Assembly: GCF_902713615.1 (NCBI RefSeq)
Contig: NC_052146.1
Span: forward strand, 23,550,234 to 23,614,233
Length of the DNA stretch: 64,000 bases
Direction of reading: 5' to 3'
Source of the DNA: Scyliorhinus canicula
Lineage: Eukaryota
The notes beneath the pieces were generated by a model. That model searched no databases. It was given only the letters and a program-made list of their open reading frames with translations, and was not told the origin of the DNA. Each line of letters starts with the position of its first letter. Position 1 is the stretch's first letter. Position numbers and translations under genes: made by a program. This document shows, piece by piece, positions 45,823 to 62,799 of the stretch.

Positions 45823-46922
45823 CTAGTATGCTAAAATTGAGTTATAGGTCTACGCCCACAAATGGCCATTGTTGCATCCAGACCCCAACTCATTAATGAG
45901 AAAAACAGGATACTCCTGTTTATCCAGGGTGATTCAATCAACGCCCTTTGTCCTCTGAAACACCCTCATCTGACCAGCCATCAGCTTGTTATACAGTCAG
46001 AGAGGTTTGCAGCATGGAAACAGGCCCTTCAGCCCAACTTGTCCATGCCATCCAGTTTTTACCACTAAACTAGTCCCAATTGCCCGCATTTGGCCCATAT
46101 CCCTCTATACCCATCTTACCCATGTAACTAAATGCTTTTTAAAAGACAAAATTGTACCCGCTGTAATTATATGTATTGTGCCTGTGTAGTAAAGGGTTAA
46201 CATCTGAAACTGTGTGCAAATCAAACACTAGATGGCGTTACTAATTTATTGTATATAAGACAACATCTCAAGGAATTCTGAGAGAAGCTGAAGAGAACAT
46301 GATGAGAAGCTGAGGAGAACAGAGTGAGAATTGATTGTAGAGATATAGTACAAAGTCAAGTCATTGTGTTGTTTATTAGTTAGATAGAATGTTGATTACT
46401 GTACTACAGATTTAGTATTATTAGTTTAGTAGCTGTTACACTACATATCTGACTATCTTGGAGGAAAAGGCAAGGAATATGACATGGTACCAGGATATTG
46501 CTGAAGTTATCCAGGTTAGACAAAAACTAGCATGCGACTCAGACTTCGAAAACACAACTCAGACTTCGAAGAACAGACTGCTTACAGACCTGCCACTTTT
46601 AAATGCAGAAGAATCCCAAACTCGTGGAGAAAGTGCAATCTCTACGATAGCTCAGGATATCTGGTAAAATAGATGTAAACTGGAAAGTTTTTAAACAGCA
46701 GTTTCAGTTATATCTGTCTGCATTTGTTTTAGACAGTGCAAGTGATAATCGGAAACCAGCATTATTCTTAACGATGGCTGGTCCACAAGCCATAGAACTG
46801 TATAACTCCTTTCAATTCTCAACGGGCGAAGATAAAACTAAATATAATGTTGTCATTGAGAAATTTGATCTGCACTGCAAGACTCAACTAACTGAAAGAT
46901 TTATCTTTAAGAAAAGGATGCA

Positions 46923-51330: not shown

Positions 51331-51797
51331 GAAGAAAACCGAACAGACTTAACTTGTGAAGAATCACAAATGAACTGTTTGATTAATTTTTTTTCTTACT
51401 CACTTGTTAATTTAATATACATATCATGTATTCTGTGACAATGTTATACATTTTTTTTCTTTTAGTCATGTAGAAAATAAATGTCTAAAACAAAAAAGGG
51501 GGGGAATGTAATGATATGTATACTGCCAGTGTAGTAAAGGGTTAACATCTGTAACTATGTGTCAATCAAACACTAGAAGGCATTACTAATTCATTGTATA
51601 TAAGATACCATCTCAAGGAATTCTGAGAGAAGCTGAAGAGAACATGGTGAGAAGCTGAGGAGAACGGAGTGAGAATTGATTGTAGAAGTACAGCACAAGG
51701 TCAAGTCATAGTGTAGAATAGATAGAATATTGATTACTGTACTACAGATTCAGTATTATTAGTTTAGTATCTGTTACTCAGTAAAGTGCGAACCTAG

Positions 51798-54261: not shown

Positions 54262-55539
54262 AGTAAAGTGCGAACCTAATCAAAGTTAATAGTGTAAAAT
54301 AAATTAGTTTTGATTCAAACTTCTTATTTTTATATTCTTTGTCAACACTAGATATCTGACTATCTTGGAGGAAAAGGCAAGGAATATAACACCTGCATCT
54401 ACTACTGCTTCTGGCATCTCATTCCAGACACTCAACACCCTCTGTGTGGACAAAATTGGCCCTCTGGACCCTTTTGTATCTCTCCACTCTCACCTTAAAC
54501 CTATGCCCTTTAGTTTTAGACTCCCTTCCTTTGGGAAAAGATGTTGACCTTATCTATGTCCCTTATTATTTTATAGACCTCTATCAGATCACCCCTAAGC
54601 CTCCTACGCTCCAGGGAAAAAAGTCTCAGTCTCTCCAGCCTCTCCTTATGACTCAAACCATTAAGACCCGGTAGCATCCGAATAAATCTTTAGTGCACTC
54701 TTTCTAGTTTAATAATATCCTTTCTATAATAGGGTGACTAGAACTGTACACAGTATTCCAAGTGCAGCCTTGCTAATGTCTAGTACAACTTCAGCAAGAC
54801 GTTCCAACTCCTGTATTCAATGTTCTGACGAATGAAACCAAGCATGCTGAATGCCTTCTTCACCACCCTGTCCACTTGTGACTCCACTTTCAAGGACCTA
54901 TGAACCTGTACTCCTAGATCTCTTTGTTCTATAACTCTCCCCAACATCCTACCATTAACTGAGTAGATCCTGCCCCGATTCAATCTACCAAAATGCATCA
55001 CCTCACATTTATGTAGCTTAAACTCCATCTGCCCACTGGCCCAATTGATCACAATCCGAGGTAACAGCCTTCACTGTCCACTATGCCGCCAATCATGGTG
55101 TCATCTGCAAACTTACGAACCATGCCTCCTAAATTCTCATTCAAATCGTTAATATGAAAAACAAACAACAGTGGACCCAGCACTAATCCCTGAGGCACAC
55201 TGCTGGTCACAGGCCTCAAGTTTGAGAAACAACCCTCTACAACCACCCTTTGTCTTCTGTCGTCAAGCCAATTTTGTATCCAATTGGCTACCTCACCCTG
55301 GATCCCATCTGCTGGCTTCTTTTGTCTGTCCTTTGTCCTGCTGCAAAGTTGATCATCTGTGTCTGGAAATTCGTTACGTATTCATAGCATGGTCTTGTTC
55401 TTTTGTGCAAATGTGAGTGGGTAAATCACAAAGTCCATATAGCGATAACAAGTTTGTATTGACTTGCATGCTCTTGTAGATGACCAGTATCGATTCCAGC
55501 CAGGGCCTCATGTAGAAGTTTATGTTCCTAGCCTATGTG

Positions 55540-57190: not shown

Positions 57191-57463
57191 CGGTGAGTTG
57201 TTGTGTTTTGGTTCTTGTAGATTGGTATATAAGCAGAAAGAGGCTGTAAAGAGTTTGGGAATAGGCGCCGAAGCCAGGTCCGCTGGCACAACGTTCATGG
57301 TGCATAACCAGGGAGCAGACAGATAGTTCACACAGAACATTCTGGAAACGGACAAGACTATGAAAGAGAAAAGGCTGATTCATCTTTCGAGCAGGGTGTA
57401 TGGTGACTCTTGAGTCTGTGTATTTGGATTAATCAGCAATTGTGCCAATCTGCGAAGACACTA

Positions 57464-57832
57464 ATGGCTGCAAAAAGTATTATTCAGTCCAAGCAGGCTG
57501 CAGAAGCTTTTGATGGAACCCTGACTGAGGTTGTGTGCACAGTGTTCAATGATTACATCTTTGTGGTGGTCACACAGTATGGCAAAATGGGAACATTGAT
57601 CTCTGCAACACCCTACAGTGTGGGAAATGATATCAGCAAACCCACATTTAGCACAAAGAGTCTAATGGAAAAGGATGAGCCTCTCATCCATGTCTATGCA
57701 AAGCACCTTGTGACTTTTGTTTCTGAGGAATCTGGGAACAAATTGGTGCTACTGGCATTGGCCTTGAAAGACGCAAATGTGGACAGTATTAAATCTATCA
57801 AACAGCTGATTCAAAGCTGCCGACTCTGGTGA
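57464..57832 (+). CDS. PSMG3: Intronless proteasome assembly chaperone 3 (PAC3) copy, 122 aa, intact ORF; probable retrocopy nested in ALDH2 intron 4
   Basis: VVVTQYGKMGTL, DISKP, KDEPLIHV.AK.LV.FVS.ESGN..VLLA..LKD and terminal C..W align end to end with vertebrate PSMG3 (122 aa); no intron; AATAAA at 58267 followed by an A-rich tract. Confidence 0.88.
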   Translation: MAAKSIIQSKQAAEAFDGTLTEVVCTVFNDYIFVVVTQYGKMGTLISATPYSVGNDISKPTFSTKSLMEKDEPLIHVYAKHLVTFVSEESGNKLVLLALALKDANVDSIKSIKQLIQSCRLW

Positions 57833-58266
57833 GATTCATTGACCAGCTGAGTCTAGTGAATAATGTATAAAAGAGTAACATGACTTCTCTTCGTTCCACA
57901 AGGGCAAAAATATCACAATGAAAATCAAACTTCTTAACTCTGGCATGAATGTTGCTGAATGGAAATCGAGGAGCAACTTTACTTTGTCTTTTTGATGCAG
58001 GGGTCATTGAACTGGAAAGCTAGTGTTTGTACTCAGTTGAGAAACATAATTGCAGCATATTTTAGACTATGCATACTCCCAAGGCAATCGGCACCCTTGA
58101 TGTTAATTAAGGCTGAAGTTTGATTTTTAAGGTAAAGATGGAACATTAGTGAAGGGAACACTAACTAGATTTTACATTCCATTCTTGAGTGTTCAGGCTG
58201 AAGCGAGGCAAGTAGTTAATGCAAAGATAGTGATTGGAGAAATGTAAATTGTGAGAAATGCATTGC

Positions 58267-58302
58267 AATAAAGTATATGAAAATTTTTAAAAATGTAAAA
58301 AA
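58267..58302 (+). terminator. Poly(A) signal and decayed poly(A) tract ending the PSMG3 copy
   Basis: AATAAA at 58267-58272, then GTATATGAAAATTTTTAAAAATGTAAAAAA. Confidence 0.55.
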
Positions 58303-58339
58303 CTATGAACACAAAGCTTAAGTAAGACTGAAACTAGTA

Positions 58340-58660
58340 AGCACTCTCCAGAAACCATTAAAACTAGATGGAAATCGATGGTGGTACTGAACAATTCACT
58401 ATTACGATGTGAATTTGACCTAAAACGAAAGCCAACCTCATTAGTCTGTCTGCTTTTCAAAAACTGCACGTGTAGCAGAAATGCGCTGATCAGCCAAGGG
58501 TGCTGGTGTACTTCAGAACAAGAACAATGGAGACCTTCGGTGTATGCAAACCTGTGCTCTCCATAGCAGACATGAGGCACTATTTCATATTGTAGACATG
58601 GACCTTGACTCCATCCTTGGAGCAGATTCATGTTAGCTCCTGAATTTAATCGAACAATTA
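58340..58660 (+). mobile_element. Ty3/Gypsy aspartic protease remnant
   Basis: Across frames: WKSMVVLNNS.., KANLISLSAFQKL, VY..T.ETFGVC, LFHIVDMDLDSILGADSC*LLNLIEQL; parallels Gypsy-2 protease (WNTPLKVNG..ASANLI..FEIVDSNQSSLLGAQTCQDLHLVQRI). Catalytic DTG is decayed. Confidence 0.62.
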
Positions 58661-58782
58661 TGTGTCCCAGAAGATGGCTGCCCAGCTGAATACTTCACAT
58701 CCCTACAGGATATTAGAGTGTGCACGATTTATGATGATTCAGAAGAAATCCAGGTGGAGGACGACAAATCAGACAGAGACAG

Positions 58783-59160
58783 AAGAGCCAGCGAGCATTC
58801 TGCAATTCTGGTTAACAATCTTCAAGAATGTACATGTGCTCAGTGGCGTGATACAGAGGCATGACGAGCCCATTTAAAGCATCTGCAAGGTGTGAATGTT
58901 AAATGGACAGAGCATGAGAAGCCGTGGAGCTTCACTCTGGAGTTTAAGTTCGAGCCAAATGAGTATTTCACAAATGAGGTAATAGCGAAAGTATATCAGA
59001 TAGATTTGTAGCCTCTTGAATCTTTCTGTGGTGAAACAGAAATCCTGGAATGCACAGTCTGTAAGATCGACTGGAGGGAGGGCAAAAAATGTAATGGCGA
59101 AAACGATTCAAACAAAACCGAAGCACAAAGGTCGAAGCACTCGCAGAACAGTTACAAAAG
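58783..59160 (+). pseudogene. NAP1L1: Intronless, diverged nucleosome assembly protein 1-like fragment (NAP1L1/NAP1L4 family; paralog not resolvable); 2 frameshifts, 1 stop
   Basis: ILQFWLTIFKNV..LS..IQ.HDEPI/LKHL..V.VK...SFTLEF.FEPNEYFTNEV..K.Y..*..EILEC..CKIDW..GK/NV..KTI..K.KHKGR...RTVTK matches the NAP1L core. Confidence 0.85.
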
Positions 59161-59564
59161 CAAGAAACTACGGCATCGCCTTCACAAAATAAAGAGAGGA
59201 AAGAAGAAAAGACTTGGAGAGCTAGCTCATCCCACTAACAAAACCAGAATTGGGAACAACGGGAAGCAGCAAACAGCGTCAAGCCAGGAAGTGCAAAAGA
59301 AAGAGTCTAGTGACACGAGCATAGCAATCAGAGACACAAGCCTTCCAAAGGCACAGAGCAAAGTGGAAAATAAACAAGAGGTCGGCACATAAACCAGTCT
59401 TCGAAGAAGCTGGCAGCAGCTCGAATGATCACAGAGGTGATCCTGTGAGGGAGGCACAATGATTTATGCAAAACAGACGGACACTGGCCAGGCATTACAT
59501 GTTTATGGACACCCTAGTAAAGCTCATTCAGTTAAAAGATCAATGTTGGCTGTAACAAATCTTA

Positions 59565-59790
59565 ATGTTTTCTGAGGAAGGGGGATGTGGTGATATGCCT
59601 GTAAGAACTGTATAGGTGGATGGTGTGCGACCTCCAACCAGTAGGTGATGGTGCAGACACACCATGGAGTCTCAAGACTGTGGTCATGTGACCAAAAACT
59701 CCACTAGAAGTAGGGATACATTGGCCATCAGCTGATAGTTGTAGGAGATGGCAGTAAGACATACAAGTGAACCGTCGTGCTAGGTGTAGT
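59565..59790 (+). mobile_element. Probable Gypsy integrase C-terminal remnant
   Basis: LRKGDVVI ... W..KTVV ... LIVVGDGSKTYK.NRRA resembles the Gypsy PL..GD.VR / W..A.VV / SY.V...DG..YRRNRRHL pattern. Confidence 0.45.
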
Positions 59791-60359
59791 TCCAGAGAAG
59801 TACAAAGAAACTCCATGATAACTTGCTCAGTAACAGATCGCTATGTTACCATGTGTGATTCAGTAAAGATCTTGGTTTGGACAATTCCAGGTTTTTGGTG
59901 AATTCCTTTGCAAGACATCAAAAACCAAGCTGTGCAGTAATTGCAGAGCGTGTGCCAAGGTTTGTGATCCACTGTATCCTTGCCATCAGCTTCACACAGC
60001 ATTGGGGCAGGAGTCTGAGGGACTCCTTTTCTGCTCATACTGTCCATGAAGCATTTATCTGAGAGCAGTATCAACAGCCACAACCCAATTCTCCATTCAC
60101 CACACCTTACCTCACCTCTGTCGTTGACCAGTAAGATTCTGTGATGGTCACAATACAAAAATAAAAGCAATCACAAAATAAGCCAGCGTGGCATCATGGG
60201 ACCTTCACTTTTTTTTTGTCCATACTTACAAATATGGCAGGAAAAGCAAGCTGTGCAGCTGGTGGGCTGCACTCCACTTCTCCCACATGTGTTCACACTT
60301 GAAAAAAAGATGAGAAAATTCTGCTCCGTGTATTTGTGTTTCCAAAGGTGAAGATGCCA

Positions 60360-62136: not shown

Positions 62137-62248
62137 GTACTATGCCGGCTGGGCTGATAAATATCATGGTAAGACCATTCCCATGGATGGAAACTACTTC
62201 TGCTACACACGTCATGAGCCAGTTGGTGTGTGTGGGCAAATCATCCCG
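62137..62248 (+). CDS. ALDH2: ALDH2-like exon equivalent to human exon 5 (112 bp): (R)[37 protein letters not shown]
   Basis: TTTTTCATAG acceptor, GTGAGT donor, phase 2/0, compatible with the 30241-30320 exon; KYHGKTIP matches ALDH2. Confidence 0.94.
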
Positions 62249-62799
62249 GTGAGTGAACAGTAAAAAAAATCAACTGAGGAAGTTGAGGGACAAATGAAAA
62301 GGAAAGACTGCTTTCCATTTTGACTTAACTTATTAGGTTCTCAAAATGATTTGGTTGAAGCATACCCTTTCAAATGGATTATGTAAACTTAATTAAGTGA
62401 CATGCTAGAAATGTTTATGGGGTTGTCCAATGTAGTGAACCTTAATGTGATTGGTGATGTGAAAACTTGTATCTTCACTGGTTTGGCTGCATGTCTGTTG
62501 AATCGTCACTGCATCCTGCACCACCTGGCTGGCACTGCCAAGGGTCAGGGCCTGGGGAAGCCATGCCCTGAAAGGAGGGTGGGAGTGCAGGGTAGGTATG
62601 AATCAGTCTCCGGAAGGTTGGGAGGGGTGAGGGGCAGGGGTCCTGGAGGGGAGGCTATGAAGGGTGGAGGATCGATATGAAGCGGCCTTAGGAAGGGTGG
62701 GGGTCCGGGGTGGGTGGTGCGGGGTAGATATGAAGGGGCCTCTGGAAGGTTGGGAGGGGTGAAAGGTGGGTGTCCTGGGGAGGAAAACCTGGAAGAGGG

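Follow-up and report, generated by a model that had tools for sequence, protein, structure and literature searches.

Elements with long terminal repeats (LTRs) are known to capture host genes. LTR-mediated retrocopies in metazoans consist of a partial, spliced host mRNA carried within an LTR element (Tan et al. 2016, PMC5131818). Such retrocopies are described there as in frame and able to re-transpose non-autonomously, and the element presented here is like them in both respects. Maize Bs1, as outlined in the same source, is also similar: it is a non-autonomous LTR element with captured host exons and with switch points common to all copies (PMC5131818). The crocodilian elements CrocERV31-nectin3 and CrocERV29-KIT-ligand offer a further likeness: they captured host mRNA, and their cargo is reported to be under purifying selection (Chong et al. 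2014, PMC4299795). What appears to be new in the catshark Scyliorhinus canicula, judging from sequence, is a Gypsy family with a captured and selected nucleosome assembly protein (NAP) domain. The literature full texts consulted hold no Gypsy element with a NAP domain and no such catshark family, and a prior annotation in Repbase or Dfam is possible; the main text of PMC3597677, on host genes in transposable elements, makes no mention of nucleosome, histone or NAP1.

The stretch of DNA analysed here (the window) comprises 64,000 nucleotides of contig NC_052146.1. Near its 3' end lie one copy of the element and, directly upstream, a retrocopy of PSMG3:

57200 to 58284, + strand: PSMG3 processed retrocopy (Pfam PAC3 E 8e-26; three-exon parent)
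58298 to 58365, + strand: gag-protease linker, where the element, truncated on its 5' side, now begins at an A-run (this copy lacks the 5' LTR, the primer site and the greater part of gag)
58366 to 58680, + strand: remnant of a Gypsy protease, with frameshifts (D-[ST]-G motif absent from the subfamily of the window copy)
58681 to 59159, + strand: NAP1L1 (earmuff domain), captured in spliced form, interrupted by private frameshifts and stops, its 3' end cut
59159 to 59160, + strand: internal deletion junction, about 1.05 kb (sibling copies have 1035-1549 nt there)
59160 to 59573, + strand: last part of the acidic/basic tail ORF, with basic clusters, plus the 3' untranslated region
59574 to 59585, + strand: polypurine tract (PPT)
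59586 to 59936, + strand: 3' LTR, TG...CA, about 350 bp (repeated in sibling copies about 1.3 kb upstream of the protease)

The window copy is a dead, broken fragment. Five private frameshifts lie near 58420, 58580, 58775, 58875 and 59085, and the deletion of about 1.05 kb, also private to this copy, removed the C-terminal third of NAP and most of the tail. A second (5') LTR is found neither in the window nor in the 10 kb on either side, and the preliminary description lacked an LTR pair for this reason. Three window frames match Pfam NAP (E 6e-8, 3e-12 and 6e-18), and positions 58719-59158 are 68% identical to the host NAP1L1 coding sequence and cross three host exon junctions. The intronless NAP1L fragment first proposed at this site is therefore real, with a start near 58680 rather than 58783. 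The protease reported beside it stands by virtue of its relatives: taken alone, the remnant has no match in a Pfam search of the window frames and only weak tblastn matches to Gypsy proteases (E 0.02-0.08), but its DNA matches that of sibling copies at about 80% identity, and the protease of those copies aligns with Gypsy polyproteins. The sequence at 59160-59570, once set down as unassigned and purine-rich, is the 3' end of the element's tail ORF together with its 3' region, joined to NAP by the deletion. A candidate integrase C-terminus at 59565-59790 was rejected, since the PPT and 3' LTR occupy that region and four Gypsy integrase-bearing queries gave no + strand tblastn match inside it at E<1.

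The surroundings of the copy include an aldehyde dehydrogenase exon at window positions 62141-62250 (+; Pfam Aldedh E 9e-8), and the element and the PSMG3 copy likely sit in an intron of this gene, on the same strand. Elsewhere in the window, a direct, LTR-like repeat of about 280 bp (88% identical) occurs at 46162-46439 and 51507-51777, 5.3 kb apart, and 47 bp beside the first repeat copy are found again at 54345-54391. The repeat is possibly another old LTR element with nested insertions.

The PSMG3 copy adjoins the protease remnant, as the preliminary description had noted, and is a LINE-type retrocopy independent of the element family. It has lost its introns, retains an intact 123-aa ORF (57461-57832, +), and ends with AATAAA at 58267 and a short A-tract after 58284 that meets the A-run of the element. 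The parent gene has three exons (G000:C15:48567038-48573747), all of them represented in the retrocopy, and is 92-95% identical to it. No target-site duplication was seen for the retrocopy, and the missing 5' part of the element beside it is consistent with a deletion at or after insertion. Retrocopy and parent differ by a K2P distance of 0.03-0.06, about a third of the distance between the window element and its nearest siblings (0.14-0.20), so PSMG3 likely inserted later. The suggestion that PSMG3 was a second cargo was rejected, because this is a single copy, younger than the element and absent from all 39 sibling element copies.

A DNA search of the animal's own genome with window positions 58250-59600 yielded 1,515 first-look candidates (40 scored), and a Pfam NAP search yielded 2,050 (144 scored; intronless, covering profile positions ~60-266); both totals are candidate tallies rather than copy numbers. 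The family likely comprises one to two thousand copies. All 39 other fetched loci have the protease-NAP1L junction in common, and it recurs in many dispersed copies with flanking LTRs. The first of two options raised beforehand, a non-autonomous Gypsy derivative with a captured histone-chaperone mRNA, is borne out by this recurrence.

The full element is about 4 kb long and consists of an LTR, a tRNA-Leu primer site, gag, protease, spliced NAP1L1, tail, PPT and a second LTR. A single frame reads gag-protease-NAP1L1-tail, replacing the usual gag-protease-RT-RNase H-integrase. The LTRs are about 300-350 bp long with TG...CA ends, and 25 of 76 copies passed a paired-LTR filter. Target duplications of 5 bp match at 4 or 5 of 5 positions in 13 of the 20 two-ended copies (6 perfect), against a mean of 0.24 and a maximum of 3 in shuffled controls. 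G000 has a tRNA-Leu(TAA) gene whose 3' end is complementary to the primer site, and an exact 24-mer spanning the PPT-LTR boundary occurs 80 times in the genome and not once in the reversed control. Internally deleted copies arise readily, giving elements of 2.1-3.3 kb. One 5' LTR (L032, G000:C6:129361500-129369000) is preceded by a PPT and the end of a tail, so this locus has two tandem elements with a common LTR.

Three ways of choosing loci give the same order of parts. All 20 loci picked by NAP have gag or protease upstream, and at least 17 of the 20 picked by gag have NAP downstream (among the other three, one is cut by a LINE). At 40 of the 80 PPT-LTR loci, NAP was found within 6 kb in 24, tail in 35, gag in 16, and stray pol-like matches in three. 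Two of these pol-like matches are far upstream, and the third (L173, G000:C4:50799740-50806190) is an RT/RNase H piece that adjoins a NAP remnant in the same direction. This piece is 28-35% like the references, and L173 may be a nested insertion of a distant Gypsy piece or a recombinant of such a piece with a NAP remnant. RT, RNase H and integrase are absent between the LTRs of family copies. Without RT, placement in a clade by that domain is impossible, and the assignment to Gypsy rests on gag-protease and the cis signals: the family has a Gag with a CCHC knuckle and an aspartic protease homologous to Gypsy. The protease has a Pfam E of 0.0015, which falls below the cut-off, as does that of the intact Gypsy L142 (0.007).

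The tail lies 3' of NAP, is about 330 aa long and acidic, and has basic clusters. It has no Pfam match. Its A-versus-B similarity is weak (E 0.012), and a comparison with 100 kb of the host gene gave no convincing match in two of three copies and only short, repeat-like matches in the third.

Element copies have also entered protein databases. The ORF of L083 (G000:C2:101771367-101772110) is the NCBI protein P0003, named nucleosome assembly protein 1-like 1. Its reading as host NAP1L1 was rejected, since it belongs to an element copy; in three raw RNA runs this one old copy is close to silent, with a depth of 0.4 at most. A Scyliorhinus torazame gene model, P0213, has the same kind of gag joined to NAP, so the capture likely predates the species split. 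Fused gag-NAP proteins in the databases are P0213 and P0003 only, in searches that by their nature do not tell whether other sharks lack such forms.

NAP1L1 is the donor. The host gene, which has introns, lies on G000:C20, and element copies cross up to eight of its eight exon junctions. NAP matches begin near residue 130 of P0001. A query with the N-terminal 100 aa of NAP1L1 matched host genes only, two of them (4 matches from 13 candidates), and the NAP dimerisation helix (domain I) is accordingly absent from element copies. The captured piece, to go by these alignments, is the C-terminal two-thirds of a spliced NAP1L1 mRNA. The second option raised beforehand, a Gypsy lineage with its own nucleosome-assembly gene, thus holds for a domain that is in frame and under purifying selection, but not for a complete gene. 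The 5' junction is mid-exon and falls within 2 nt of one host position in all eight old copies examined. This point is a few codons after the protease, where RT starts in intact relatives. Protease and NAP are spaced by 192 nt in 10 of the 20 copies that could be scored, with old and young subfamilies both represented, and the others differ by small indels. One copy, L117, retains a natural uninterrupted frame from zinc knuckle through protease to NAP. At its 3' junction NAP fades into acidic repeats. The donor element's own sequence was not found. The NAP junction has neither a poly(A) nor a duplication of its own.

A tree of 66 copies, built after 11 had been dropped for short alignments, is a ladder in which subfamilies G1 to G6 lead step by step away from the host; the window copy belongs to G5. 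The two LTRs of a copy differ by 0.19-0.20 in G1 (n=3) and by 0.09-0.18 in G5 (n=11), which makes every sampled copy old. Two copies, L077 and L104, are near G1 in NAP and have long branches and a mosaic look; they are possibly recombinants between subfamilies. The protease decays along the ladder. Among eight readable G1/G2 copies the motif is DTG in five and DMG in two, and none of 34 readable G3-G6 copies has D-[ST]-G. For G6, a sibling subfamily, a retropepsin fold is predicted for the protease; in the first fold prediction the protease half had a pLDDT under 50, with an alignment that contained no protease relatives.

The NAP domain retains its fold and loses its acidic surface. The earmuff fold (domain II) matches Pfam NAP at E 5e-62 in L023, and the G5 domain is predicted to adopt an earmuff fold like that of human NAP1L1 with a pLDDT of about 90, in predictions that lean on alignments of intact relatives. 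Hydrophobic positions in G5 are kept at 0.91, and its basic hairpin has 7.7 K/R against 9 in the host. Acidic positions are kept at 0.78 in G1, 0.55 in G5 and 0.43 in G6, and net charge moves from -4.4 to about 0. Acidic histone-contact residues are kept in G1 and lost in G2-G6: the equivalents of C. elegans NAP1 D125 and E129 are present in 10/10 and 8/10 copies of G1 and in 2/35 and 7/36 of G5, and the acidic stretch ahead of the last helix has disappeared. In the sections of PMC9128123 consulted, these two residues matter for histone binding, NAP1 binds histones as a dimer, and the basic hairpin is the nuclear localisation signal of yeast Nap1. The acidic face of human Nap1 chaperones a basic viral protein, HIV-1 Rev, according to part of PMC13255070, which makes clients besides histones possible.

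Selection was measured from net divergence (between-group minus within-group), a quantity that isolates the copying lineage with no consensus built; L021, L049, L077, L100 and L104 were excluded from the groups as long-branch or mosaic. Intervals are codon bootstraps in which the tree is not modelled. The net dN/dS of the NAP core from G1 to G5 is 0.22 (kappa 1) or 0.36 (kappa 3). It is 0.13-0.55 on steps wholly inside the derived clade, and 0.27-0.40 on the G1-G2 step, when the protease motif was intact. Because the ratio within groups is already 0.5-0.8, NG counts put the excess constraint at about two-fold. A transversion-only test, comparing second with fourfold positions, gives 0.21 (0.06-0.62) for NAP, 0.04 for capsid and 1.25 for protease between G1 and G5, with 0.33 for the NC-linker; NAP constraint exceeds that of NC-linker and protease for G1-G5. 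The tail, which has no known fold, gives 0.4-0.6 in this test, mostly not significant. From G5 to G6 the NAP transversion test is not significant (0.51, 0.17-1.67), and the catalytically dead protease is still constrained (0.22). Amino acids turned over at 12 of 93 positions conserved among 34 cellular NAP1 proteins and at 26 of 91 variable ones (p=0.011). Choosing copies without regard to NAP score gives a similar picture: 24 copies picked by PPT or gag have a ratio of 0.41 (0.26-0.66) and a transversion-only ratio of 0.15 (0.06-0.45), against 1.0-2.8 in shifted-frame controls. These patterns indicate that the captured NAP domain evolved under purifying selection between subfamilies.

Low ratios could also be borrowed from the host, through repeated re-capture or conversion by NAP1L1 mRNA. 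The ratio between host and G1 (0.20-0.29) and the mosaic L077 and L104, near G1 in NAP, would suit such an origin, which is nonetheless improbable. The 192-nt spacing is equal in old and young subfamilies, the tree is a ladder with older LTR pairs in G1 than in G5, and ratios below 1 also hold for the G2-G3, G3-G5 and A5-A6 steps, which are distant from the host and have in common derived residues that cellular NAP1 lacks. Coincidence at a single locus, whereby independent L1-type retrocopies of NAP1L and PSMG3 fell into a decayed Gypsy or PSMG3 was itself cargo, is barely credible. The single copy, poly(A) signal, A-tract and A-run junction fit this account for PSMG3 only. The NAP junction is mid-exon in 39 of 39 copies with neither poly(A) nor its own duplication, and PSMG3 is both younger and present in none of those 39.

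A different question is what the selected domain does. It may be no more than folded filler, kept because misfolding would harm Gag and because a long open frame is needed, with no chaperone or targeting role. An open frame that reaches the 3' end would escape nonsense-mediated decay and keep cis-packaging. Retention of hydrophobic positions while acidic positions erode step by step and net charge approaches zero is what such a filler would show, and the constraint on a dead protease from G5 to G6 points the same way. This account is unlikely, though it deserves serious weight. NAP persisted across the whole ladder (net dS 0.5-0.8) although deleted copies arise readily, it is more constrained from G1 to G5 than the NC-linker and protease, and the constraint was already there on the G1-G2 step, while the protease motif was intact. 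The balance tips modestly toward a pol-less Gypsy that kept NAP as a folded, nuclear-targeting and, early on, histone-binding module of its particle, with RT and integrase from a helper. The element likely used the host-derived domain for its own spread, the role of NAP here being an inferred one. Against this account are the dimerisation helix, never captured, and the acidic contacts, lost after G1. The only two-fold excess of constraint, the non-significant G5-G6 transversion test, the comparable ratios of the tail, the near-silence of L083 and the failure to find a true helper also weigh against it.

Under this preferred account of NAP as a particle module, host NAP1L1 mRNA would have been captured by template switching inside a particle. 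The Gag-protease-NAP-tail protein of the element would package its own RNA in cis, and RT and integrase would be borrowed from a helper Gypsy of a lineage with the same PPT, LTR ends and tRNA-Leu primer site. The protease of G1, still active, would free NAP-tail within the particle with its acidic surface intact, and NAP-tail may then shield basic proteins or handle H2A-H2B at the integration site. In later subfamilies, including that of the window, fold and basic hairpin would carry the role of NAP, because the canonical acidic surface is eroded. The window copy is dead and was likely hit later by the PSMG3 retrocopy. A more elaborate version is tentative and rather doubtful: the protease dimer, later dead, would replace the NAP1 dimerisation helix, particles would carry a nucleosome-handling and nuclear-import module to the integration site, and the pol-less element would out-compete its helper.

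The intact autonomous Gypsy L142 (G000:C5:181992500-182000500) has the same PPT, LTR start and end, and primer site as the element. Its family is young, with an ORF of 1433-1449 aa, LTRs 99% identical and at least 36 near-complete copies. The interior of its LTR does not align with the element, and its gag has 56-58% DNA likeness. Given its youth and its distance from the element, L142 cannot itself be the helper. A helper search with P0121 queries found intact young Gypsies and two older ones (L140-L142), none of which aligns to the LTR interior or tail of the element.

When LTR elements capture host genes, the outcome is usually a low-copy accident; the catshark cargo was carried over a long period by a successful master lineage, constrained at the protein level. 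This amounts to domestication in reverse, in which a transposon retains a host chromatin domain. The subfamily ladder records the remodelling of that domain (the dimerisation helix was left behind, the acidic surface went, the fold and basic hairpin stayed, and the protease became inactive), and it offers a natural series for testing the use of the cargo to a pol-less element. The family also adds about 2,000 NAP-like matches to the genome, as well as NCBI gene models (P0003, and P0213 in S. torazame), and its copies are a trap for shark gene-family counts.

Among known systems, K02A2.6-like Gypsy elements (P0121-P0123; L142) align with the catshark element through Gag, zinc knuckles and protease (residues 1 to ~400), and L142 has its cis signals (PPT, LTR ends, tRNA-Leu primer site) in common with it; unlike them, the element has no RT, RNase H or integrase between its LTRs. 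With NAP1L1 and other NAP chaperones it shares the earmuff domain, the basic hairpin and the start of the acidic C-terminal region. In contrast to cellular NAP, its version has no dimerisation helix, lost its acidic contacts after the oldest subfamily, and is followed by a tail of about 330 aa. The retrocopies of Tan et al. (2016), as characterised in PMC5131818, are mostly young and low-copy, whereas the catshark lineage is long-lived, with about 10^3 copies, successive subfamilies and a selected cargo. Maize Bs1, in the account given in PMC5131818, has one to five copies and three donor genes; in the catshark, an animal, one donor domain replaces RT, RNase H and integrase. The crocodilian captures described in PMC4299795 are retroviral, number 6-9 copies, and carry a cargo that replaces env or forms a separate ORF, whereas the catshark element is a Gypsy in which a chromatin domain is fused to gag-protease and pol has been lost.
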